The position numbers and the translations under genes are program-made. From positions 128,001-192,000 of the forward strand of contig CAWFGE010000007.1 in NCBI GenBank assembly GCA_963815195.1: a stretch of 64,000 nt of DNA, given 5' to 3'. Positions within the stretch are counted from its first letter, which is position 1, and each line of letters opens with the position of its first letter. Positions 48,827 to 61,535 of this stretch are shown one piece after another. The notes below the pieces were generated by a model. It saw only the letters and a list, made by a program, of their open reading frames with translations. It was not told the origin of the DNA and did not search any database. Source of the DNA: an uncultured Planctomycetaceae bacterium. GTDB lineage: Bacteria; Planctomycetota; Planctomycetia; Planctomycetales; Planctomycetaceae.

Positions 48827-49420
48827 ATGGGAGAATATCAGGCGTGCCTTTGTTGCGGGCAGATTCATCGCGTGCCCGCGCTCGAACCGGCGCAGGTCGC
48901 GGCGTGCGTGCGGTGCGGGGCGAGATTGACGAATCCCCGCGAAGCCGACCGCGCCGCGATGCAAACCGCGGCGGCGGCCTTGGGGGCGTTCATCCTGTTC
49001 TGGCCCGCGGTCTTGTTGCCGATCCTCGAAATCGAACGCCTCGGCCATCATCACAAATCCAGTTTGCTCGGGGGCATTTTTGAGATGCTCGGCCACGGCG
49101 AGTGGTTCGTGGGCGCGATCGTGCTCTTGTTTTCGATCGTGTTTCCCCTGGTCAAAATCGCGCTGTTATTGGAACTCAGCCTCGTGAAACTTTTGCACCG
49201 CCGGCATCGCGCCTTGACCTATCGGCTTATGGAAGGCACCGGCCGCTGGAGCATGATGGATGTGATGCTGCTTGCGTTTCTGGTGATGCTCGTCAAACTC
49301 GGCGGGATTGTTGCCTTCCACATCGGGCCGGGGGTGGTGGCGTTCAGTTTGTGCGTGATCCTGAGCCTCGCGGCGTCGATGCGGTTTCACCCCGAGCAGA
49401 TTTGGGAGGACGGCCAATGA
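48827..49420 (+). CDS. pqiA: Paraquat-inducible protein A-like, single domain (alternative start 48785)
   Basis: CxxC..CxRCG, FSIVFPLVK and GRWSMMDV. Confidence 0.88.
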   Translation: MGEYQACLCCGQIHRVPALEPAQVAACVRCGARLTNPREADRAAMQTAAAALGAFILFWPAVLLPILEIERLGHHHKSSLLGGIFEMLGHGEWFVGAIVLLFSIVFPLVKIALLLELSLVKLLHRRHRALTYRLMEGTGRWSMMDVMLLAFLVMLVKLGGIVAFHIGPGVVAFSLCVILSLAASMRFHPEQIWEDGQ

Positions 49421-51243
49421 CCGAGGGTGCGCCCCCGCCGCCGACCGGCGAAGCGGATTTTCCCGTGGCGGAGGTTCAGCCGGCCGGCTGGTCCTTCGGG
49501 CGTTGGCTCAGGCGAACGTGGCCGATCTGGGTCATTGGCCTGGCGTCGTTGGGCGTGGCGGCGGCGCTTGTGATGATCTCACAGGGTTCGTCGGGGCCGC
49601 GAATTGTTGTGAAATTCGCGGAGGGGCACGGGATCAAGCCAGGCGACCGGTTGCGGCATCGCGGCATCGATGTCGGCGAGGTGACCGGCGTCGAACTCGG
49701 CCCGCGGCTCGAAGACGTGCTGATTACCGTGGAACTCGCGCCGGCCGCCCACGGCATCGCCCGCCAAGGCAGCCGGTTTTGGATCGAACGGCCGCGGATC
49801 AGCCTTTCGCGAATCAGCGGCTTGGAGACCGTCGTCGGCGCGAAGTACGTGGGCGTGTTGCCGGGGCCGCCCGACGCGGCGCCGCAGTTCGAGTTCGAGG
49901 GTATGGACACGCCGCCCTTGTTCCACAATGCCGACTCGGTGGAAATCACGGTGCAATTTCAGAACGGCTACGGACTCGCGGCGGGGGATGTGGTGAAGCA
50001 TCGCGGCATCGTCGTCGGCGAAGTTGCGAGCGTGGAGCCCGATCCGAAGTTTCAAAGCATCGAAGTCCGCGTGCGGCTTATCGGGCGGGCCACGGGTTTC
50101 GCCCGCGCCGGCAGCCAGTTTTGGATCGAACGGCCCCGATTGAGCATCGCGGAAGTGCGCGGCCTCGAAACATTGATCGGCGGGCGTTTTCTCGCCGTGT
50201 TGCCCGGTTCGCCCAACGGAAAACCGCAGCGTTCGTTCGTCGGTTTGGAATCGGCCCCGCAAGGCGAACTTCCCGCGGGCGGATTGGAGATCCTGCTGCA
50301 AGGCTCCATCAAGCACGGCCTGGCCCCCGGCACGCCGGTGCTCTACCGCGGCCAGCACGTGGGGCGGATTCTCTCCGTGGGACTCGCCCATGACGCGGCC
50401 AGCGTCGATGCCCGCGCGTATATCCAGCCCGACTATCGCAACCTGATCCGCGACAACACGCAGTTCTGGAGCAACAGCGGCCTGCAACTTCGCTTGGGGC
50501 TTTCGGGGCTGGAGTTCAACACCGAAACGCTTTCCAGCCTCGCACTTGGCGGCGTGACGTTTGCGACGCCGACCTCGCCGGGCAAACCCGTCACGACGGG
50601 CCACCGGTTTCCCATCGCGGCGAAGCCCGATTCCGATTGGCTGGAATGGCAGCCCCGCATCGCCGTGGGCGCGGGCTTGATCGGCAATGGAGTTTCCATG
50701 CCATCGCCCCAGCGAGCCAGCCTGCGGTGGTCGGAATCGTTCCTGGGCATCGGCCGCACCAAACGCCGGCAAGGCTGGGTCTTGGTGCTCGACAAGGGCC
50801 GCGAACTGCTTGGCCCTGCCGACTTGCTGACGCCGGCCCAAGAGGCCGATGATGAGACGATCCTGGAAGTCAGCGGGCGAGAGATCAAGATCACCAAAGG
50901 AAAAGCGAAAGTCGTCGACGGCATCGCATTCTATTCCATCGAGGGCGAGCCGATTTCGCCGGAATCCGCCTGGCCGATCAAACGTTTGCGGTCGCCGGAG
51001 GAGTTGGAATCTTCGCTGTTGATTGCCGACCCGCAAACGCCGAAAGTTCCGCTGGCTGCCGCGAGGCTTTCCCCCAGCGAAGATCAAAAGACCTGGTTGA
51101 TCGATTCGTCCGTGCCGATCGATGGCAGCTGGCATGGCGCGTGTTTGATCTCCGTCAAAGACGGGGACCTGATCGGCATCGTGCTCGCCGACGAAACCCC
51201 GGCCCGCGTCGCGGTGATCCCGCCGAAGTTGGAAATTCCATAG
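49417..51243 (+). CDS. pqiB: PqiB-like protein with three MCE domains and an extra C-terminal domain
   Basis: ATGA overlap with pqiA and three repeats of the GxxxGxxVxxRGxxVGxV...SxFW pattern. Confidence 0.85.
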   Translation: MTEGAPPPPTGEADFPVAEVQPAGWSFGRWLRRTWPIWVIGLASLGVAAALVMISQGSSGPRIVVKFAEGHGIKPGDRLRHRGIDVGEVTGVELGPRLEDVLITVELAPAAHGIARQGSRFWIERPRISLSRISGLETVVGAKYVGVLPGPPDAAPQFEFEGMDTPPLFHNADSVEITVQFQNGYGLAAGDVVKHRGIVVGEVASVEPDPKFQSIEVRVRLIGRATGFARAGSQFWIERPRLSIAEVRGLETLIGGRFLAVLPGSPNGKPQRSFVGLESAPQGELPAGGLEILLQGSIKHGLAPGTPVLYRGQHVGRILSVGLAHDAASVDARAYIQPDYRNLIRDNTQFWSNSGLQLRLGLSGLEFNTETLSSLALGGVTFATPTSPGKPVTTGHRFPIAAKPDSDWLEWQPRIAVGAGLIGNGVSMPSPQRASLRWSESFLGIGRTKRRQGWVLVLDKGRELLGPADLLTPAQEADDETILEVSGREIKITKGKAKVVDGIAFYSIEGEPISPESAWPIKRLRSPEELESSLLIADPQTPKVPLAAARLSPSEDQKTWLIDSSVPIDGSWHGACLISVKDGDLIGIVLADETPARVAVIPPKLEIP

Positions 51244-51289
51244 TGCCGAACGCCGGAGGGGGATTCCTACCGGTTCCCACATTCGGCCC

Positions 51290-51409
51290 CACCCAAGACC
51301 TTCGGCACCATCGGCCTTCGATTTCAGAATGTTGGATAAATTGGGACAACAAAGTTCCTATATTTATGAGCTATTCGGCGGCGGACTGACTAAGTTCTTT
51401 AAAAAGTGA
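51290..51409 (+). pseudogene. Possible 3' remnant of a toxin gene (JAB-like HP..PSxxD tip)
   Basis: The frame reads HPRPSAPSAFDFRMLDKLGQQSSYIYELFGGGLTKFFKK*, is AT-richer than its surroundings and stops 11 bp before the next ATG. Confidence 0.4.
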
Positions 51410-51611
51410 GGGAGTTTGTCATGGCTATACTGATAGGCGGAAAGACTAGGTGCGTCCTTTGTGGTGGCGTGATCGGAACGTCTGCAGAAGCGTTGGGGTT
51501 TCCTGCATTTGTACCCAACGGGCATAAATTTTCGAAATTCTCCGACAGTGCATTTCACCGAACCTGCTTTGTAGAATGGCAACACCATGAGGAGTTCGAA
51601 GAACTATTCAA

Positions 51612-53390
51612 CCCGGATTATTCATCAGGTCCGTGCGTGGTGAGTATTTCCGTGGCGGAAAGTGCACCGGGTGGTTGGGGAGCGGAGGATGGGCGGACCG
51701 CCCCCTTTCCCCCTGGGGCCTGGCGATCGTTGGGTGAGTGAAGGAAAGAAACAGAAAGGCGGATGCCACGATGGCGAACTGCTCAGTCCCGAAGAACCAG
51801 TTGCTCATGGGCGTGACGTGGGAGAGGTGTGTAGGGCCGCGGGCGAGCTCCGCGCGGACGTGGCCAGAGGTTGGCCAGACGCAGCGATCGGATGCGGGAA
51901 GACATCGCGGCCCAAAACGCGCTCACGCTTTCCTCAATGTAAATCACGAGGCGGCGGGAGTGCTTCACGACCCGCGCTCCTGTCCGCAGCACCGACTGCT
52001 GGAAACGATGCAAGTCCCAGCAACCGCCCAACTCGTCCTCGAACTCGATCCGCAGCATCGACGCCAGGTTGAACGCCAGCAGGCCCAACAGCAACGTCAC
52101 TTCGTTCTCCGCAAACACCGATGACGAAAGACGGCAGCCAATCACCGCGTTGAATTCGCCCAGCCGGTCCTCGAACGTGCCGCGCTTGCGGTAGTGCGAC
52201 AACACCTCATCCGCCGAGCGTTGCTCCTCGGTCCAGTTTGTGATCAGGAAGAAGTAACGCGGAAACAGAGCCAGTTGGCCCGTCTTCGCCTCCGGCTTGT
52301 CGACGATGACCAGAATCACCCGCTGCGGATGACGCCAGCCCTCGGCTTGGTACTTTCCGAGTTCGATCACGTCCTCATATCCGCCTTTGGGCGGCCGGCC
52401 TACGGGACGTGTCAGATAGGGCGCGGCCATCTCTTCCAGCACGTTGTTCTTCTTGATTCTCCCGCAAAAACGGATGTTTTCGTCGGTCAACTCATCCAAC
52501 ACCGGGCCGGCGATGAAACCCGCATCGATCCGGAGGTCGAAGCTCCACGCCAGTTGCCGGGCCTTGCCGACCACGTTGCGAATAAACCGCCGGATGCCAT
52601 TGGCCGTATGCACGCTGCCTTGCCGCAGGATGGCATGAATGAAGCCGTTGCCCAGCCGCTGGCCTTCCCGCGTGCTATCGTAGTCGCCGCCGACCGAGAA
52701 ACTAGCGACCAGCGGATGATAGACGGTCTCCTTGTAGTAACCGTTGTAGCGGGCCCCCGGCTGCTGGCCATAAACCTGCATCGGGAAACTGTCGATGTCG
52801 ATGGTGGCGTAGCGGACGCGGCGGTCGCTGTCGCCGGTGCTTTTGATGTGCCGATGGATCCAGTCGAACAAGGCGCTCCGCACGGCCTCGAGATTCGTCT
52901 TGCAGTCGGCCAGCCAATCGATGAGCCGGGATTGAGTGGGTTGGCTGGCCAGGCGTTGGTTGAGCACTTCTTCGCCGGGCCGGTCCCACGCGGCCATCTT
53001 CATAGCGGGATCATGGGCGAGCCGGTCGAGATCATCCTGATCGGACTCTCCCAGGGCCATGGCGTAGATTCTTTCCCGCAGCAGTTCGACGCCTTGATAG
53101 CGGACGCGGTCTTGCTGGCGAGGATCGATCAGTTGATCCGCGAGCGATTCGGTGAGTCCGAGCCGATGATCGAAGTCCCGCAGCAGAACGGCACCGGAGT
53201 GTGACGTGAGCCGCCCATCGACGGCCTTGACCTTGATGGAACGATTGAAATCGGGCTCGAAAATGTTAGGCTGAACTTCACCCATCGCGTGATTCCTCCG
53301 TTTGGTTTCGGGATTGCGGTATACCACTTAAACGCAGAGGGTCACGCGATGGTTCCTTCTTTTTTCATCTTTTTTGGTGAATAATCCGGG
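51612..53390 (-). mobile_element. IS1380-family insertion sequence, 1779 bp
   Basis: Terminal IRs CCCGGATTATTCA(T/C)CA match at 15/16; 5-bp target duplication TTCAA at 51607-51611 and 53391-53395. Confidence 0.93.
51783..53285 (-). CDS. IS1380-family DDE transposase
   Basis: LTSHSGAVLL, LASQPTQSR, IDIDS, YNGYY..YHPL, RIDAGF and YRKRGTFE. Confidence 0.93.
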   Translation of the reverse strand: MGEVQPNIFEPDFNRSIKVKAVDGRLTSHSGAVLLRDFDHRLGLTESLADQLIDPRQQDRVRYQGVELLRERIYAMALGESDQDDLDRLAHDPAMKMAAWDRPGEEVLNQRLASQPTQSRLIDWLADCKTNLEAVRSALFDWIHRHIKSTGDSDRRVRYATIDIDSFPMQVYGQQPGARYNGYYKETVYHPLVASFSVGGDYDSTREGQRLGNGFIHAILRQGSVHTANGIRRFIRNVVGKARQLAWSFDLRIDAGFIAGPVLDELTDENIRFCGRIKKNNVLEEMAAPYLTRPVGRPPKGGYEDVIELGKYQAEGWRHPQRVILVIVDKPEAKTGQLALFPRYFFLITNWTEEQRSADEVLSHYRKRGTFEDRLGEFNAVIGCRLSSSVFAENEVTLLLGLLAFNLASMLRIEFEDELGGCWDLHRFQQSVLRTGARVVKHSRRLVIYIEESVSAFWAAMSSRIRSLRLANLWPRPRGARPRPYTPLPRHAHEQLVLRD

Positions 53391-53599
53391 TTCAAAGCAT
53401 ATCAGGAGATTTGGAAGTCGCGGCCGAAAGACGTTGGATTGGAAGCGGCAGAGGATTGGGGGAGAACCGCATTTTCCGATTTATTCGCCTCTGGCATGGA
53501 AAAGACATCATGATCACCCCGTTCAGCGATCATTTTCTGTGTTGCCCCAAATAGGAGACTGACGGTTCTCGATGACGTGACCCCTGGTCAGCCAGCGAT

Positions 53600-53659
53600 G
53601 TAGGGTCCGCTGTGCGGACCGAAATTGATGGTTCACTGTTTCAATTAAAGGTCCGCTAC
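53600..53659. repeat. GTAG-type REP palindrome with a collapsed second arm
   Basis: GTAG-GGTCCGC-TGT-GCGGACC at 53600-53620 and GGTCCG-CTAC at 53650-53659. Confidence 0.65.
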
Positions 53660-55184
53660 GCTGCTTTGTCTTCACGGGCGGGGATTTTCACGGGGAGGTG
53701 ACGGCCGGGGGCGATGCGGTGCTCGCGTCGTTCGGGAACGTCAAGGGACACCTCGCGGCCGGTGGCTATGCGTTTCTGGCGTCGTGGGCCGATGTGGATA
53801 ACATGGTCGTGGAGGGTCCGGCCGGGGTGGGCGTTTGGGCCGTCGGCCATATCGAGGGGCTGGCGTCTTCCCGCGTAACCTCCACGCAGGGAGAAGTCAA
53901 TATCCTGGCTTTGGGCAATGTCTCGGCCCGCGTGGAAGCCGCCGCCGATGCCACGATCCTCAGCGAAGGCGATGTGAATGCTTCACTCGACGCCGGCAAG
54001 GATGCCTTTGTCTTAGCCTATGGAGACGTCACAGGCAATTACTCCGCCGACCGCGATGCGTCCGTGATCACCTACGGCAACTTCAACGCCGGTCTGCACG
54101 CGGGCCGGGACATCGGCCGCCGACCGTTCGGCGGGAATGCGCTGCCGGGCGTGTGGGCGCGGGGGAACATCTCCGGCGCGATCACGGCGGACCGGAACAT
54201 CGGCTACGAGGACCAGCAGGCCATCCAGGATGACTACGATTATGTCATCTTCAGCTATGGCTCAATTGACGCGGCGATCCTCGCCTATAACACCGCCAAT
54301 ACATCGAACGGCGGCTACGTGGGCAGCATCGGAGCCTTGGGCGCGATCGGCGGCACAATCATCGGCCAGCGGGCCGTCTCGCTCGTCCAATCCGGCGATG
54401 CGGTGACCGCTTTCATCCAGGCCCCCAACCTGCCCACCGTCATCGAGTTCGATTCCACGATGGCGACAAACTACCCGCTTCCCGCGGTGCCGGATTCGAT
54501 CTTGAACGAAGTGCTGGCCGACCTGCAAGCCGCGCGGGACCAACTATTTGCCGACAAGGACCAATATGAGCAAATCCTCGATGCGGGCCGCAGCGATTTT
54601 GGGGCCACCCGCCAACAGGCCCTGAGTGACTTGGCTCAAGCGGTCGCGCAATGGTCGGCAGACAACTCAGAGACGAAGGCCGACGCGGAAAGCTCGCTCA
54701 AAGACGACCAGGACGCGGCCATCAAAGGGCTTCGCCAGAAGCAACAAGAAGAGCACGAGTTTATGCTCGCCGCGGTGGATGGAAAGGTCGACGCTTCCAA
54801 AAAGGAAGCGGCGGCAAATCACAACCGCGACCAGGCCCAGCGAAAGGCGGCCCGGCAAGCCAAGGAGGCGGCCGATCGAGTCAAGGCTGTGAACAACACC
54901 ATCGCCCAAACCGACAACGAGTTGGCCCAAGCCCGCGTCGCCGTGCAGCAAAACAGCGATTGGAAGATGACCGAGCACATCATGGCCTTCCAGGAGACTC
55001 CGAAAAATGTGGTCGAAACCTGGAACTGGGGCGGCTTCTTTGATGGTTTGGGGACGGGCTTCAAAGCGTTGGGTAACAGCGGCGTTGATACGGTTGTCGG
55101 CTTCGTGTCGCTGGGCGGACTCCTGTTTGATGCGGAGCCACTGCATGTGTTCGGCGGGGAAGATGAACTGGGGTATGATGCATC

Positions 55185-56652
55185 CACCCCTTTCAACATG
55201 TCACTTACCCCTGGATTTGGCCAGAGTTCGCGCGGTGGAGATATGGTGATTCCGTTTGCCGCTCTTTTTTCGAGGCTGTGGTTTTTTCGGCCCGCGTTTC
55301 TTTTTGGGGTAACGCGTCAGGTCGATGCGTTTCGCGAGTCGCACCAACTCGATCGCGAGTTTTCGAGGTGGCATGATTTGATAGCCCTCCCAGATTTCCG
55401 CGTCCACGGCGATGTTCATGCCCACCGTCGTGGCAGTCACGTCCTGCGTCAGGTGGTAGTCCGACAGTTCTTCATCGATCGTTTCTTCACCGTGAACCGA
55501 TCGCAGCGCCGCTTTCACCACGGCATAGGTGTTATAAGCCAAAACCGCCGTGGCGAAGGCGAACAGCGCCGCCTTGGGGTAGCCCAGCGTCTCCACTTCG
55601 CAGCGCAACACCTCGGTCAGAGTTTGGAAGGCTTCTTCAATCGTCCAGCGCTTGCGATACAGAAAAGCCACTTTTCGCGCATTGGCGACTTTGACAGGCA
55701 AGTTGGTCAGGATGTGAATCTCAGTGTCACCATTCTCTGTGGGCGTATCCAATTGGATGGTGATCCGCCGGACTCGCAACGTCTCTTCACCCTGGGACAG
55801 CTCGGCCGACTGCTCGAAAACAACACCCGTTTCGATGCGTCCGATGCGTTTCCGGCGACCGACGAGTTTCCAGGTGAGTGTCGAAGCGTGTTGGCGAATG
55901 ACAAAGTAGGCCGACTGCTTGACAATTCCAAACAGAAACTTGGTCGTGCAGAAGTTCCGGTCGGCGATTGTCACCGTCTCGGCCCGGATCCATTCCAGAA
56001 GCTCCGGCAGAAGCGAACGTTCCTGAGCATGCCCGTCTTCACACGGGAGCAGTTCCGAAATCAGATCCCGCTGCGCGTCCAGAAGCGCCAAGGTCTGGCC
56101 GGGCAAAGGGCCTTCCCGCGTGACGCGCAATTCCGCCAGCCGATGCTCAGTCGCCGCCAAATGATTCCCGTCCAAATACTGCACGTGATAGCCCGGCAAA
56201 AGTTCGCGGCATGCTCCCGGCATGGCATCGATGACTTGAGCCGCGTCCTGGCTCGTTTCCCGGATCATCGTCGCCGAAAGACCGGGTTCCAGACGGTTCA
56301 ACTTGCCATAAAGTGCGGCCGGCGAAACCGCCAGTTGCTCCTTGGCCGCCAAGTACCCGGCATGGACCGACGTGTGCGTCCGCGTCGCCACGCCCATCAT
56401 CAGGGCCACCACTTGCGAAAACAGCAATTCTTTCTCGTATTGTCTCTGCGAAGCGTCGGCGAAAATCTCATCCAGGCGATCCGGCGACACAAGATTCTCG
56501 AGCGTCGCTCGAACCATCACTGCCGCTGGACATTCTTCCACAAAACGATCAAGCACAGCGTCGGGCCACATCCTTGCCGCCTCCATAAGGTTTGATACAA
56601 CAATCCCTGTAGAAGCGACTTATAGCAAAAAACTAACATGTTGAAAGGGGTG
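55185..56652 (-). mobile_element. IS4-family insertion sequence, about 1.47 kb
   Basis: IRs CACCCCTTTCAACATGT / ACATGTTGAAAGGGGTG; duplication GGTATGATGCATC at 55172-55184 and 56653-56665 (11 bp if the IRs are taken one base longer). Confidence 0.92.
55201..56586 (-). CDS. IS4-family DDE transposase
   Basis: LDGNHL, IADRNF, ILTNLP and YRKRWTIEEAF (YREK signature). Confidence 0.93.
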   Translation of the reverse strand: MEAARMWPDAVLDRFVEECPAAVMVRATLENLVSPDRLDEIFADASQRQYEKELLFSQVVALMMGVATRTHTSVHAGYLAAKEQLAVSPAALYGKLNRLEPGLSATMIRETSQDAAQVIDAMPGACRELLPGYHVQYLDGNHLAATEHRLAELRVTREGPLPGQTLALLDAQRDLISELLPCEDGHAQERSLLPELLEWIRAETVTIADRNFCTTKFLFGIVKQSAYFVIRQHASTLTWKLVGRRKRIGRIETGVVFEQSAELSQGEETLRVRRITIQLDTPTENGDTEIHILTNLPVKVANARKVAFLYRKRWTIEEAFQTLTEVLRCEVETLGYPKAALFAFATAVLAYNTYAVVKAALRSVHGEETIDEELSDYHLTQDVTATTVGMNIAVDAEIWEGYQIMPPRKLAIELVRLAKRIDLTRYPKKKRGPKKPQPRKKSGKRNHHISTARTLAKSRGK

Positions 56653-57342
56653 GGTATGATGCATCCTATATGATAAATCGCTTCTCGGTGGAGTTTTTGT
56701 TTGGGGTGGGAACGGGAGGTTTATCGACCGTATCCAAAGTGGGCTGGGTGGGAAAAGTCGGCAAAGGGGTTTTCTTGTGGGATACGCTGGGCAACGGGGC
56801 AGCCATGATCCGAGGCGGCAGCGACATTGCCGAAAACGGCTTCACCTGGCAAAATAGCATCCAGTTCTTCGGCGGCACCTTCGGCCTCGCCGGCAACTGG
56901 GTCGGCCGCACGCACTTCTTTGATGATGTGCCTGTTGCCCCTGTCCCAAAAAGTGGACCGGGACGGTTTGAACGCGTTATCGAAAGTATGCCTGACCGAG
57001 CGGCTCGCTATCAAAGTCGCATAACGGGAAGATTGCCTGATGTCGGATACAGGGTGAATGGCGTCAAATTTGATGGATTCGATGAGATTGCAGGAGTTCT
57101 TCTTGACGCAAAAGGGCCGGGTTACGCAAAATTCGTTCGAAACGGTGAGTTTCAACCGTGGTTCCGTGGCGCTGATGAACTCGTAGAGCAAGCCCAACGG
57201 CAGTTGGGAGTGCGGGCGGGACTGCGCATTCAGTGGCACTTTGCGGAGGAAGCGGCTGCTGAAGCCACCCGCAATCTGTTCCGATTTGAAAATATTGAGG
57301 GAATTGAGATTATCTTCACGCCTTAGCAATGTGAGAATCGGC

Positions 57343-57912
57343 ATGTTTGTAGGTGCATATTGGGGAAAGCGAAAGGAAACACGCGACGAATGCGCAAAGC
57401 GCATCGCTGATGTCTTGCAACGACTTGGACAATGTCATCCAGCACTGAGGACTTGGTATCTGAAGGGCCGTAGTAAAAGTGAGGCGCTAAAGAACCCAAT
57501 TGAGTTATCGGGAGATTTTCTTGGCCGGATTCTGAGGACGAACAATCGCGACACCGACGGTTCAGCGATAGTGGAACTTGGTTTCAATATCGGTGTTTGG
57601 AATGGAAACAACAACCTACCTGTATCGTTTCGTGCGACGTGTGGAGGGTACTCGGATTTCGTTAGAAACTCCGTGGTGCTACAGCTGCCATCGAACTGCG
57701 ACGATTGCGACTTTTTGTCCTCTAAACGAGTCCGAACAATGTTGCTCGATTTCGTTGAAACGTTTGACCCAGACAAGGCAGTGGTAACAAGTAATGAATA
57801 CCTTGACCGTGCTGGTGTTAACCACCCGTGTGATGCTGGATGGTTAGTGTATGAGCGAAGCCGCGGCGTCGATCAGATCATTGAACAGGGGACAGTCGGG
57901 CAGGTCGATTGA
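57343..57912 (+). CDS. Imm52-like immunity protein
   Basis: MFVGAYWGKRKETRDECAKR...HPALRTWY...LGFNIGVWNG...GWLVY, starting 16 bp after the REase-5-like stop. Confidence 0.85.
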   Translation: MFVGAYWGKRKETRDECAKRIADVLQRLGQCHPALRTWYLKGRSKSEALKNPIELSGDFLGRILRTNNRDTDGSAIVELGFNIGVWNGNNNLPVSFRATCGGYSDFVRNSVVLQLPSNCDDCDFLSSKRVRTMLLDFVETFDPDKAVVTSNEYLDRAGVNHPCDAGWLVYERSRGVDQIIEQGTVGQVD

Positions 57913-58734
57913 ATGCCGGCGGTTCGGCCCTGGTGACCACTTGGGGCGATTTGAACGGCTCCGTCACCGCCGGGGACGCGGCGTTGGTGTTTTCCGGCGG
58001 GGAATCCACCGATTTCGACATCGATGCCGGGAGCGATGCCCTCCTGCAAACGGCGGGATTCACCATCACCAACGTGCACGCGGGCGAAGACGCCCTCATC
58101 ATCGCGGGCGGGGTTTTGGCCGGCAGCGTGTACACCGACCGGGACGCGGCGGTGTTGACGTATGATTTTTCCACGATCCTGGTCGATGCCGACCGGTATG
58201 CGTCCGTCTCGATTTTCAGCAAGTATCAGGGCACGGTGTCTGCCGGGGCGGTTGCCTTCGTGTTCACGGGCGGAGATTTTCACGGGGAGGTGACGGCCGG
58301 GGGCGATGCGGTGCTCGCGTCGTTCGGGAACGTCAAGGGACACCTCGCGGCCGGTGGCTATGCGTTTCTGGCGTCGTGGGCCGATGTGGATAACATGGTC
58401 GTGGAGGGTCCGGCCGGGGTGGGCGTTTGGGCCGTCGGCCATATCGAGGGGCCGGCGTCTTCCCGGGTAACCTCCACCGGGGGAGAAGTCGATATCCTGG
58501 CTTTGGGCAACGTCTCGGCCCGTGTGGAAGCCGCCGCCGATGCCACGATTCTCAGCGAAGGCGATGTGAATGCTTCACTCGACGCCGGCAAAGATGCCTT
58601 TGTCTTAGCCTATGGAGACGTCACAGGCAATTACTCCGCCGACCGCGATGCGTCCGTGATCACCTACGGCAACTTTAACGCCGGTCTGCACGCGGGCCGG
58701 GACATCGGCCGCCGGCCGTTCGGCGGGAATGCGC
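57909..58734 (+). pseudogene. Second toxin-stalk fragment, truncated at its 3' end by a REP
   Basis: About 275 codons of the same xAGxDAxVxxxGDV repeats. The last 159 codons duplicate the first cassette, and homology stops at a REP. Confidence 0.8.
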
Positions 58735-58772
58735 CCCTCACCCTAACCCTCTCCCCCGAGGGGAGAGGGGAC
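58734..58772. repeat. REP-like palindrome CCCTCACCCTAACCCTCTCCC..GGGAGAGGG
   Basis: Hairpin CCCTCTCCCC-CGA-GGGGAGAGGG. Confidence 0.8.
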
Positions 58773-58787
58773 AAATCCACGGACGAT

Positions 58788-61535
58788 CTACTTCGCGTCG
58801 TCCTGCTTCGCGTCGTCCTTCATCATCTTGAAGTCGCCGGCGACGACGGTGAAGAGCTGTTTGGGTGCGATGTGCTGTTTGAGGGCTTCGTGCACCTCGT
58901 CCGTCGCGACTTTGGGAATCGCGGATTCCAACTCTTGGTAATACTCCATCGTGCGGCCGATGTGCAGGTTTTGCGAGAGGAGGCGGGCCAGGCCACTGTC
59001 GCTGCTGCGGGCAACGGTTTGCTTTTGCAGGTAGCCGGTCTTGGCCTCGTTGAGTTCCGCTTCGGTCACGCCGTCTTTGAGGAGTTTTTCCAATTCCTCG
59101 GAGATGACTTTGCGGACTTTGGGGATGTTGTCCGGATTGGAGATTGCGTAGATATAAAACGAGGACCGCTCGTCCAGCGCGGAGGCATTAAAACCGCAGC
59201 CCACGCCGTAGGACAGGCCTTCCTTCTGACGGACGCGGTTTCCGAGCCGCGACGAAAGCGACCCGCCGCCGAAAATGAAATCGCCCAGTACGAGCGCGGG
59301 ATAATCGGAGGCGGTGTCCTTCATGGGGAAGGTCATTGCGGAGAAATAGACGGCGTTTTTCTTGTCCGGGGTGTTGATGTCTTCAAACCCGCCGGGCTTT
59401 TGGGAGGCTTTGTCCGCGAGGCGTTCGTAGGGCTGTTTGGCTTTCCAACCGGCGAGGACCTTATCGCAGAGGGGCACGATCTCGTCCGGATCGAAATCGC
59501 CGACGATCGCCAGCTCCGCGTGCTCGGGCGTCAAATAGTTCTCGAAGAGTTTGACCATTTGATCGCGGGTGACATCTTTGGTCCGCTGGATCTCTTCTTC
59601 GATCGAAGGCACGTACCGCGGATCGCCCTTGGGCCATGCCGACATGTGCTGCCGGACCAAGGTGGTCGCCAGGGACTGGGGCTCGACAAGTTCCTTTTCC
59701 CAGCCGGCGAGTTGAGCCCGCTGGATGATGCCCAACTCCTCTTCCGGGAACGTCGGTTTGCGGAGGACTTCTTGGAGGAGTTTGAGCACGGCGGGGAGGT
59801 TTTCCCGCTTGGTTTCGAGGGAGAAGGTGGCCACGCCGGGCGAGCCGCTCGCCGCGAGTTGGGCCTTCTCCTTGTCCAAAGCGTCCTGGAGTTCCTGGCG
59901 GGTGAAGTTCATGGTGCCGCGAGTCATCATGCTCGGCAACAGCTCGGTCGCCTTTTCCAATCCCGCCAAACTCTCGGCGGTCCCGTAGCGGAGCGTGAGC
60001 CGGAGGTTGACGGCTTCGCCGCGGGTCTTTTTGGGCAATAACGCGGCCTCCGTGCCGCATTTCAACATGACCCGCGTCGTGCGGGCCTGGATGTTTTTGG
60101 GCGACACGTCGAACGCTTCGCCTTGGGCGATTTGCTCCCGGCCTTCGTAGTTGCCGATCATCTCGGCCAGGTTGGGGATTTCCGGGATGACGGTTTTCTC
60201 AGGCTGTTTGGTGGGCAGATACAAACCCACGGTGCGGTTGCTGCGGGTGAGGTATTCTTTGGCCGCTTTGTCGACGTCCTCGGCCGTGACTTTTTCCAAG
60301 CGGTCGCGGTAGACGAAGTACAACCGCCAATCGCCCATCGAGGCCCATTCGCTGAGCTCGATGGCGATGCGGTCGGACTTGGACGCCGCGAGTTCGCGGT
60401 ATTTCAAGAGCTTCAGTTTGATGCGGTCCACTTCTTCCTGCTTGACGCCCTTTTCCACGACCTCTTCGATCGTGTCGAGCATGGTGCCGAGCACCAGGTC
60501 GGGTTCGTTGCCTTCGGAGACCTCGGCCATGATCCGCAGGATGCCCGGATCATGCCAGGCGAAGGCCGCCCCGGAGACGCTCGCGGCTTTTTTGGTTTCC
60601 ACGAGCGACTTGTACAACCGCCCGGACGGGGAAGAGGTCAAGATGCCTTCCAGCACGTCCATCGCGGGATATTCGGGATGGGGACCGGCGGGGATGTGGT
60701 ACAGCACGCCGACCAAAGGCACTTCGCCGACCCGCCGGAGCGTGACGATTTTCTCGCCGTCTTGCGGGGGCTCTTCGGTGTAGGTCTGGCCGAGCTCGCG
60801 CTTCGGTTTGGGCAGCGTCCCGAAATATTTGCCCGCGAGCGAGAGCGCGGCATCGGGATCGAAATTTCCGGCGATGACCAGCATGGCGTTATCGGGCTGG
60901 TAGTATTTTTTGTAGAACTCTTTGAGCTTGGAGACCGGCACGCGTTCGATGTCGGCCTTGTTGCCGATGGTCGATTGCCCGTAGTTGTGCCATTGGAACG
61001 CGGCCGACATCATCCGCTGGCCGAGGATCGACGAAGGGCTGTTTTCGCCGCGCTCGAACTCGTTCCGCACGACCGTCATTTCCGAGGCGAGGTCTTCGCC
61101 TTTGATGTAGCTGTTGATCATGCGGTCGGCTTCGAGCTTGAGGGCGAACTCCAGGTTCTCGTCGGACGCGGGCAGGGTTTCGTAATAGTTCGTGCGATCG
61201 ACCCAGGTCGTGCCGTTGAACCGCGCCCCGCGTTCGGTGAGCAGCTTGGGAATCTTCTCGTGCGTGGGCGTGCCTTTGAAGACCATGTGCTCCAAAAGGT
61301 GAGCCATGCCCGCTTCGCCGTAGCCTTCGTGCCGGGATCCGACGAAAATGGTGAGGTTCACCGTGACGACGGGCTTGGAGTCGTCCGGGAACAACAAGAG
61401 GCGGAATCCGTTTTCCAATTTGTATTCCGTGATCCCTTCGATCGAGGTCACCTTTTCGGCGGTCGGTTCTTCGGCGGACAAGACGGGGTTCGACATACAC
61501 ATCACCAAGGCGGTAAAGACGAAAACTCGCAGCAT
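58788..61535 (-). CDS. M16 (pitrilysin/PqqL-like) zinc protease, exported
   Basis: Signal peptide, HLLEH, NGTTWVDRTNYY and RQKEGLSYG. Confidence 0.95.
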   Translation of the reverse strand: MLRVFVFTALVMCMSNPVLSAEEPTAEKVTSIEGITEYKLENGFRLLLFPDDSKPVVTVNLTIFVGSRHEGYGEAGMAHLLEHMVFKGTPTHEKIPKLLTERGARFNGTTWVDRTNYYETLPASDENLEFALKLEADRMINSYIKGEDLASEMTVVRNEFERGENSPSSILGQRMMSAAFQWHNYGQSTIGNKADIERVPVSKLKEFYKKYYQPDNAMLVIAGNFDPDAALSLAGKYFGTLPKPKRELGQTYTEEPPQDGEKIVTLRRVGEVPLVGVLYHIPAGPHPEYPAMDVLEGILTSSPSGRLYKSLVETKKAASVSGAAFAWHDPGILRIMAEVSEGNEPDLVLGTMLDTIEEVVEKGVKQEEVDRIKLKLLKYRELAASKSDRIAIELSEWASMGDWRLYFVYRDRLEKVTAEDVDKAAKEYLTRSNRTVGLYLPTKQPEKTVIPEIPNLAEMIGNYEGREQIAQGEAFDVSPKNIQARTTRVMLKCGTEAALLPKKTRGEAVNLRLTLRYGTAESLAGLEKATELLPSMMTRGTMNFTRQELQDALDKEKAQLAASGSPGVATFSLETKRENLPAVLKLLQEVLRKPTFPEEELGIIQRAQLAGWEKELVEPQSLATTLVRQHMSAWPKGDPRYVPSIEEEIQRTKDVTRDQMVKLFENYLTPEHAELAIVGDFDPDEIVPLCDKVLAGWKAKQPYERLADKASQKPGGFEDINTPDKKNAVYFSAMTFPMKDTASDYPALVLGDFIFGGGSLSSRLGNRVRQKEGLSYGVGCGFNASALDERSSFYIYAISNPDNIPKVRKVISEELEKLLKDGVTEAELNEAKTGYLQKQTVARSSDSGLARLLSQNLHIGRTMEYYQELESAIPKVATDEVHEALKQHIAPKQLFTVVAGDFKMMKDDAKQDDAK

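Follow-up and report, generated by a model that had tools for sequence, protein, structure and literature searches.

A probable graveyard of orphan toxin cassettes in a planctomycete genome points to an apparently undescribed polymorphic-toxin stalk

Positions 51290..58772 of a 64,000-nucleotide stretch of DNA from an uncultured Planctomycetaceae bacterium (assembly GCA_963815195.1, contig CAWFGE010000007.1, positions 128,001 to 192,000; the whole stretch is hereafter called the window) hold five pieces, all on the + strand: the remnant of a toxin tip, a small unmatched gene, a 5'-truncated toxin, an Imm52 gene, and a second truncated beta-helix arm. Very probably, these pieces are what is left of an array of orphan cassettes, now decayed, that stem from a planctomycete family of polymorphic toxins. 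The array is probably no longer able to deliver toxin, because leader and start are missing and the open reading frame (ORF) of the toxin is split. The locus is thus an ordinary orphan-cassette graveyard, pointing to an apparently undescribed polymorphic-toxin stalk architecture. To our knowledge, interbacterial toxin delivery in Planctomycetes is essentially uncharacterised. A preliminary description of the locus, made from the letters alone, had proposed orphan toxin-immunity modules; it was largely right but incomplete, and its orphan-module interpretation is supported.

Cassettes and insertion sequences

The truncated toxin runs from a beta-helix through a helical hairpin and a Gly-rich segment to a Tox-REase-5 domain. 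This domain matched PF15648 at 59.8 bits (cut-off 25; E = 3.9e-16) and holds the strings ARYQ, FDGFDE, LLDAK, and QWHF. In an alignment of the 3' piece of the toxin to the solved Tox-REase-5 chains 9oz0_B and 7dym_A, ARYQ, (F/W)DGFDE, LL(D/E)AK, and WHF were conserved. The article text of Zhang et al. (2012; PMC3482391) gives the signature of this family as Y, FDG, EAK ([DE]AK), Y, Q, and W, and a table there pairs Tox-REase-5 with Imm52. The tip scores over the gathering threshold and shows Y, FDG, [DE]AK, and W of the signature; it is assigned to Tox-REase-5 and is predicted to be a PD-(D/E)xK nuclease and a putative toxin. The gene that begins 17 nt after the toxin stop codon passed the threshold of Imm52 (PF15579) with 90.3 bits (cut-off 25; E = 1.9e-25; residues 36-204 of the listed ORF). 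The profile searches thus bore out both names given in the preliminary description.

Neither stalk-bearing piece has a beginning of its own, as had been noticed from the sequence. The toxin frame from 53698 on has no leader or plausible start, and an in-frame stop codon lies just upstream. Even the frame as it was before the insertion described below has no proper beginning: its homology to the other stalk copy begins abruptly at 53664, in the middle of the beta-helix. Arm 2 begins at the Imm52 stop codon, likewise without a leader or plausible start. The tips and immunity genes are AT-richer than the stalks, as had been stated, with a GC content of 0.47-0.52 (0.47 for the tip remnant and 0.495 for the Imm52 gene) vs 0.64-0.65 in the stalks and 0.597 in the genome. 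A regular-expression scan of the seven translated pieces found no VENN or PAAR string and no YD-type motif, and a Pfam scan of the locus found no RHS, FHA, LXG, or HINT domain. The reported absence of RHS/YD, VENN, LXG, and PAAR motifs thus holds for the locus; that of HINT also holds here, but the domain is common in relatives.

The earlier gene reading had overlooked two insertion sequences (ISs) on the strand opposite to the cassettes, which together account for ~3.25 kb of the 7.5 kb. IS1 interrupts the small gene. Its transposase matched the NCBIfam IS1380 model NF033539 at 272.4 bits (cut-off 180) and Pfam DDE_Tnp_1_4 (E = 1.4e-74), and the element has terminal inverted repeats and an exact 5-bp target-site duplication, TTCAA, at 51607-51611 and 53391-53395. 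The score, the inverted repeats, and the short duplication place it in the IS1380 family. IS2, putatively of the IS4 family, interrupts the toxin ORF. Its transposase matched Pfam DDE_Tnp_1 at 49.2 bits (cut-off 23) and the NCBIfam IS4 model NF033592 at 105.5 bits, which is under the cut-off of 115; its terminal repeats are perfect over 17 nt, and a target-site duplication of exactly matching 13-bp copies flanks it (55172-55184 and 56653-56665). The 8.87-Mb assembly holds 13 full-length copies of each IS, the window copy counted, and most are 97-99% identical. The ORF 52194-53204 (336 aa) is antisense over its whole length to the IS1380 transposase gene and was rejected as an immunity gene for that reason. 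The 965-aa ORF 53698-56595 is antisense to the IS2 transposase gene in its C-terminal half, from ~residue 497 (the last ~470 residues). Neither antisense stretch is a real gene, and the two ISs thus explain part of the genes read earlier.

The ISs were excised in silico, each with one copy of its duplication, and the reading frame alone was checked. Excision of IS2 gave a toxin frame open for 715 codons, from 53698 to the stop codon at 57324-57326; excision of IS1 gave a small gene open for 102 codons, from 51421 to the stop codon at 53511-53513. Since both frames rejoin, the two insertions are best read as simple, recent events in formerly open frames, and the main cassette as a pseudogene disrupted by an IS.

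The tip remnant proposed at the left end, here called tip A, was confirmed by blastx. Positions 51260-51397, with a stop codon at 51407-51409, matched two proteins of the stalk family at their extreme C-terminal ends, P0045 (2583 aa; residues 2545-2580, 67% identity over 36 aa) and P0115 (367 aa; residues 315-365, 51% identity over 51 aa). No Pfam model matched tip A in P0045 or P0115. Members of the tip A family span residues ~2480-2583 of P0045, residues ~260-367 of P0115, and 51260-51409 of the window. The tips of both proteins contain an HxHPxPxGPSxxD (HTHPxPxGPSxxD) string, which we take to be a putative likeness to the JAB/JAMM metal-binding motif.

The ATG of the small gene, at 51421, lies 11 nt past the tip A stop codon, and such a short gap is the usual spacing between a toxin gene and its immunity gene. 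No Pfam or NCBIfam model matched the small gene even at E ≤ 5, and a word search of 5.8 billion proteins with 51421-51606 found no homologue. In Atlas, only unnamed 'hypothetical' clusters were recognised, under the trust level. The 'immunity-like' character given to this gene in the preliminary description therefore stays positional, because no relative or family was detectable; by its place, the gene is the putative immunity gene of tip A.

The features are listed in Table 1. On the left, the locus is flanked by a MlaD/PqiB-like gene (49102-51243; Pfam MlaD, E = 8.5e-37) and on the right by a convergent M16 peptidase gene on the minus strand (58788-61535); all five elements described earlier between pqiB and the M16 protease are present. 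The listed MlaD/PqiB-like ORF has 713 codons, and its N-terminal ~100 residues (49102-49413) are Arg/Gly/Pro-rich. Its true start is probably internal, because same-genus homologues align only from ~residue 105. An 'empty site' was not recovered in two genomes of the same genus (G070 and G130), where the PqiB-like and M16 genes lie on separate contigs with unrelated flanks.

Table 1. Features of the locus, in window coordinates
Feature	Coordinates	Strand	Remarks
Remnant of toxin tip A	51260..51409	+	last ~50 codons and stop; starts 17 nt past the end of the MlaD/PqiB-like gene
Small gene, 5' part	51421..51611	+	putative immunity gene for tip A by position; cut by IS1
IS1, IS1380 family	51612..53390	-	transposase gene 51783-53327
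Small gene, 3' part	53396..53513	+	stop 53511-53513
Homology arm 1	53664..54142	+	stalk segment in common with arm 2
Orphan toxin, 5' part	53698..55184	+	beta-helix to ~54468; two long helices 54502-54993; Gly-rich hydrophobic segment begins
IS2, putative IS4 family	55185..56652	-	transposase gene 55201-56586
Orphan toxin, 3' part	56666..57326	+	Gly-rich segment; Tox-REase-5 ~57003-57248; stop 57324-57326
Imm52 immunity gene	57343..57912	+	189 codons, intact
Homology arm 2	57909..58734	+	275-codon beta-helix stalk fragment; overlaps Imm52 stop; without tip
REP-like hairpin element	58735..58772		dispersed repeat; stalk homology ends exactly at its edge

The stalk and its wider family

The segments common to arm 1 (53664-54142) and arm 2 (58256-58734) are 96.9% identical over 479 nt, in line with the homology arms proposed for these 5'-truncated modules. 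Because the 15 nt differences give only 3 amino-acid changes in 159 codons, the comparison implies that purifying selection acted on the two arms as they diverged, when they still belonged to working genes and had not yet been stranded here. Arm 2 reaches 116 codons further 5' than arm 1. Its end coincides exactly with the edge of a 38-bp hairpin (58735-58772), of which the genome holds 26 more copies at E ≤ 1e-5; in the stalk frame and in open frames, this element reads PLTLTLSPEGRGD. The element resembles repetitive extragenic palindromic (REP) sequences, is GC-rich and ~38-45 bp long, and its edges (58734, 58771-58773) coincide with loose ends of contigs in unrelated soil and wetland metagenomes.

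The stalk had been described as a beta-helix, and its predicted structure agrees. An AlphaFold2 model of 53698-55182 (38-row alignment; mean pLDDT 78) places a regular beta-helix at residues 1-257, mostly with pLDDT >90, and helices at residues 269-352 and 360-432 (~83 and 72 residues), which would fit an antiparallel hairpin. A Gly-rich, hydrophobic stretch of 65 residues at the end is modelled as disordered; residues 441-600 of the restored toxin frame are 21% Gly and 41% AVLIFMW. A Foldseek search of the PDB with the stalk model gave no match at E ≤ 1e-3. The best VIA-align match was 3p4g (MpAFP; Z 19.2, root-mean-square deviation 2.5 Å, 218 aligned), and 2odl (HMW1 secretion domain) and 8cpk (EtpA) reached Z 17.4 and 17.0, respectively. 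At the level of models, these matches are generic to beta-solenoids and speak for a common shape, not homology. No bactofilin structure was among the best 50 VIA-align rows, which excludes nothing.

By sequence, the stalk was found to be less unfamiliar than the preliminary description held. The repeat period in arm 2 is 18 residues, and the Bactofilin model PF04519 recognised the repeat, at 25.7 bits in arm 2, under the gathering threshold of 27.9, and above it in three relatives (P0073, 62.4 bits; P0068, 36.6 bits; P0088, 30.1 bits). These matches point to a common repeat type, not to membership of the cytoskeletal family. The stalk pieces were also considered as cytoskeletal bactofilins, which was rejected on the context and the giant relatives. 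No NCBIfam model matches the stalk.

Profile A1, covering the stalk-coil region, was made from the window piece, two pieces of a paralogue on contig C9 of the same genome, and two database matches, and was searched against 1.84 billion cluster representatives. It recovered 250 representatives at E ≤ 1e-3, of which 140 also passed ≤ 1e-10 and 65 passed ≤ 1e-30. Full-length members have 2,000-7,900 aa; many are giants of 3,429 to 7,912 aa, with the stalk match a few hundred residues from the C-terminus. Variable C-termini, as expected of stalk homologues in the preliminary description, were found, with many different tips in the family of 250 representatives. A Pfam search of 30 mid-sized matches found PT-HINT in 9 at E ≤ 1e-3 (7 above the cut-off) and, as tips, AHH, Tox-URI2, DUF2380, DUF7587, and sub-threshold TreTu_C; 16 of the 30 were without any Pfam family. 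Among 12 large matches, four carry 6-21 Big_9/cadherin-like repeats and four PT-HINT, and Ntox28 and PT-TG occur in one each. Two further relatives have PT-HINT with DUF2380 or weak WHH/colicin-DNase tips. The REase-5 tip of the window was found in none of 150 listed representatives. A search with a single protein gave one related locus (L007, in a metagenome-assembled genome of an uncultured Planctomycetaceae bacterium, with fragmented frames), and a search with profile A2 limited to proteins of 3612-5000 aa gave no homologue.

A leader made of a basic stretch and an LExRxLL-type motif is present in 12 of the 39 matches of at least 1300 aa; many others lack an initial Met and are fragments. 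In one genome (G116), an intact gene of 3274 aa also has the leader motif. PF07595 ('Planctomycete extracellular') matched one relative at 18.6 bits, under the threshold of 25.5. In the form (L/V)E.LE.R.(L/V/M)(L/M), the leader was seen at residues ~5-55 of giant proteins (P0019, P0023, P0027, P0028, P0044, P0068, P0073, P0077, P0092, P0105, P0109, P0124, and L026:8068-8517). Nothing showed the stalk homologues to be CdiA/FHA proteins next to cdiB: there was no FHA match in the 42 relatives scanned, and no TpsB/CdiB-type gene was found among the 16 + 10 flank ORFs scanned around the family genes of G044, G070, and G116. The family gene of G044 (4,251 codons; L019/L020, G044:C3:34000-68000) has an RHS-repeat protein (at least 1,942 aa) on one side and another giant ORF (at least 2,720 aa) on the other. 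Just downstream of its tip come small ORFs and a gene for a phage-type integrase, and the region looks like a toxin island.

Polymorphic toxins, as understood by Zhang et al. (2012; PMC3482391), have these same properties: a conserved scaffold with many alternative C-terminal toxin domains, Imm52 directly downstream of the REase-5 tip, and orphan 5'-truncated cassettes with homology arms (the two window arms, the tip remnant, and the array on C9). The N-terminal secretion module is absent at the window locus through truncation; the LExRxLL leaders of the 12 large relatives (of 39) and of the G116 gene are candidates for it. Among the listings and abstract openings returned by full-text searches of the open literature, none describes the stalk scaffold, in line with the possibly undescribed family that had been suggested. 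The 300,000 characters of article text searched in Zhang et al. (2012) do not mention bactofilin, beta-helix, solenoid, cadherin, or Rhodopirellula.

Origin of the array

The preliminary description placed the full-length gene elsewhere, which found no support in this metagenome-derived assembly of 25 contigs (94.6% complete). All 25 contigs were searched at the protein and the nucleotide level, and none yielded a parent gene whose stalk matches; this stalk occurs only at the two window sites, and the sole other match is the C9 paralogue, at 30-40% identity. The paralogue locus (~47600-66800; L006 = C9:50000-66000) has a 1,435-codon frame with stalk, coil, a hydrophobic/transmembrane segment, PT-HINT, and a DUF2380/SitA6-like tip, then a 178-codon ORF, and then at least three 5'-truncated copies that start at the stalk end and have other tips. 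By this gene order, C9 is read as a textbook orphan array within the same genome. Upstream of the frame, cadherin-like repeat and stalk pieces occupy ~8 kb in at least six different frames, which is the mark of either a pseudogene or assembly indel errors. In G070, a fragment of the window stalk (87-89% nt identity) is truncated within 55 nt of the arm 1 truncation point and sits among the orphans of a giant alpha-helical toxin that is unrelated. Judged by these assemblies, fragments of the window stalk appear to circulate in the genus only as debris.

A second giant toxin-like family, unrelated to the stalk family, was seen on C9 (~73172-86434, minus strand) and in G070 (L021, G070:C12:4000-23999). 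Its N-terminal repeats are of the 'DxDGDGxAD' type, and its alpha-helical repeats are very long and rich in Ala, Asp, and Thr. The C9 copy is frame-broken; in G070, the gene heads a mosaic orphan array that includes a beta-helix stalk fragment and an Imm11-like gene.

Judged from the relatives, full-length members would be giant exported or surface proteins with a basic LExRxLL leader, immunoglobulin (Ig)/cadherin repeats, a beta-helix of 18-residue period, a helical hairpin of ~160 residues, a Gly-rich hydrophobic segment, often a PT-HINT autoprotease, and a variable tip, followed by the immunity gene of that tip. In intact relatives, the leader would export the fibre of Ig/cadherin repeats, beta-helix, and helical hairpin, and the Gly-rich segment and HINT would act in translocation and release of the tip. 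A PD-(D/E)xK nuclease tip would cut recipient DNA, and Imm52 would protect kin. Recombination within the stalk may have displaced the window cassettes from a stalk-bearing gene, or brought them in for one, and so stacked them here. Stacking of this type is like that of the orphan arrays of contact-dependent inhibition (CDI) and Rhs systems. The array would next have lost its 5' and 3' ends and then taken hits by two active ISs, one in the small gene and one in the toxin ORF. The window Imm52 may still protect against neighbours with the same nuclease tip, and recombination between the two 97%-identical arms could remove the intervening 4.6 kb.

Five points weigh against the array being such a decayed remnant of a polymorphic-toxin family. 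First, tip-swapping cannot be shown here, because the assembly has no parent gene carrying the matching stalk. Second, the small gene is without detectable relatives, and its immunity role is positional only. Third, arm 2 is without a tip, unlike a classical orphan. Fourth, the family is sparse across genomes: within the taxonomic family of the source, 7 of the 151 genomes searched have it, the present one counted, and it was found in 0 of 400 other genomes of a phylum sample, a count that is a floor and not an absence, as the first filter was stricter there. Fifth, the assembly comes from a metagenome, and in the sole public run that covers the toxin parts their word depth is only ~1-6x, so repeats may have been misassembled. 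Among four public sequencing runs, only X1 covered the toxin parts, in short contigs, and no contig joined across either IS; the other three held only IS or REP copies. The exact target duplications and the restored frames argue against chimerism but are no substitute for spanning reads.

A wider claim, which we put forward tentatively, is that the stalk marks an undescribed, planctomycete-specific mode of toxin delivery, a CDI analogue independent of type V secretion, of which the C7 cassettes of the window are recombination debris. Giant surface fibres would be exported via a phylum-specific LExRxLL (Planc_extracel-like) leader, each made of Ig/cadherin repeats, a very long bactofilin-type beta-helix, and a helical hairpin; the fibre would insert its Gly-rich segment into the neighbouring cell and free the HINT-cleaved tip.

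The locus could instead be a live reservoir, whose tips recombine with a full-length gene of near-identical stalk in the unassembled part of the genome. The intact Imm52, the purifying-selection type of arm divergence, and the orphan arrays beside a longer gene on C9 all suit this view. Giant repetitive genes often break assemblies, and the present one is only 94.6% complete in 25 contigs. We nevertheless hold a live reservoir to be unlikely: the searches of all contigs gave only the paralogue of 30-40% identity, the two IS insertions and the bare arm argue for decay, and G070, of the same genus, also holds only a fragment.

It is improbable, too, that a residual addiction module has been kept, in which a 218-codon ORF from ATG 56670 (Gly-rich segment and nuclease) is co-expressed with Imm52, perhaps from an outward IS promoter, as a putative intracellular toxin-antitoxin-like pair stabilising the region. 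This ATG, 4 nt past the duplication copy, does open a complete 218-codon frame with an intact nuclease, and Imm52 lies 17 nt later, but it is an ordinary internal Met codon of the pre-insertion ORF. That the arms and IS copies come from a collapsed or chimeric assembly of strain variants is highly improbable: the depth is ~1-6 over unique parts vs ~50 over IS copies, public contigs are short and leave the junctions unbridged, and the genome has many near-identical IS copies, but exact target-site duplications with perfectly rejoined frames rarely come from a chimera, the unique junctions (Imm52 stop/arm 2 and tip A/small gene) are coherent gene boundaries, and G070 shows a truncated fragment independently.

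As a decayed orphan array, the locus would be non-functional debris, yet it identifies a coherent family, which counts at least 250 sequence clusters and whose longest members reach 7,912 aa. Variable tips, immunity genes, and orphan arrays here stand on a scaffold and a leader that are not known to be used by CDI, Rhs, Maf, or LXG systems. If it is true that the family is exported and contact-dependent, it would represent an independently evolved delivery fibre and would suggest what part of the unexplained 'giant genes' in the planctomycete phylum are for. The locus is also a clean example of IS-driven decay of orphan toxin arrays.

Comparison with known systems

The closest likeness in layout is to the CdiA-CT/CdiI orphans of CDI systems. 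Both have 5'-truncated toxins that keep an upstream homology arm, followed by an immunity gene, and both have AT-richer tips. At the level of shape, the predicted fold of the window stalk superposes on the secretion domains of the TpsA proteins HMW1 (2odl) and EtpA (8cpk). However, no Fil_haemagg/FHA Pfam match and, by sequence, no two-partner secretion domain were found in the locus or in 42 relatives; VENN was absent from the seven window pieces, and PT-VENN gave no Pfam match. No CdiB/TpsB gene was found among the window ORFs beside the locus or in the flanks scanned in G044, G070, and G116. Further differences from CDI are the 18-residue, bactofilin-like period of the window stalk and the PT-HINT and planctomycete-type leader of the relatives.

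Rhs systems resemble the locus in three ways: their C-terminal tips are polymorphic, orphan cassettes have been displaced, and the arrays often contain IS elements. They differ in that no RHS_repeat (PF05593) match and no YD or PxxxxDPxGL-type motif was found in the locus or in the 42 relatives scanned; YD..G was absent from the window pieces. The scaffold of the stalk family is a predicted solenoid fibre, whereas that of Rhs is a shell.

As a pair, the tip and its downstream gene belong with known Tox-REase-5/Imm52 pairs, the former by PF15648 and the signature and the latter by PF15579. For Tox-REase-5, Zhang et al. (2012; PMC3482391) list the contexts of the type II, V, and VI secretion systems and PrsW, and the table text names no planctomycetes for this tip. 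The window tip differs in standing on a beta-helix/coiled-coil scaffold in a planctomycete.

Bactofilin (PF04519) resembles the stalk in its repeat signature and ~18-residue period. Bactofilin itself is a cytoplasmic polymerising domain of ~100 residues, whereas the stalk repeats extend over hundreds to thousands of residues in giants with leaders, Ig/cadherin repeats, and toxin tips. The tips of the C9 paralogue, P0046, and P0027 resemble SitA6/DUF2380 of the SitA-type toxins of Myxococcus (TIGR02269/DUF2380), from which the stalk family differs in having a scaffold without the lipoprotein delivery module. Set beside these systems, the scaffold of the family appears to add a new variant to a type of system that is well known.

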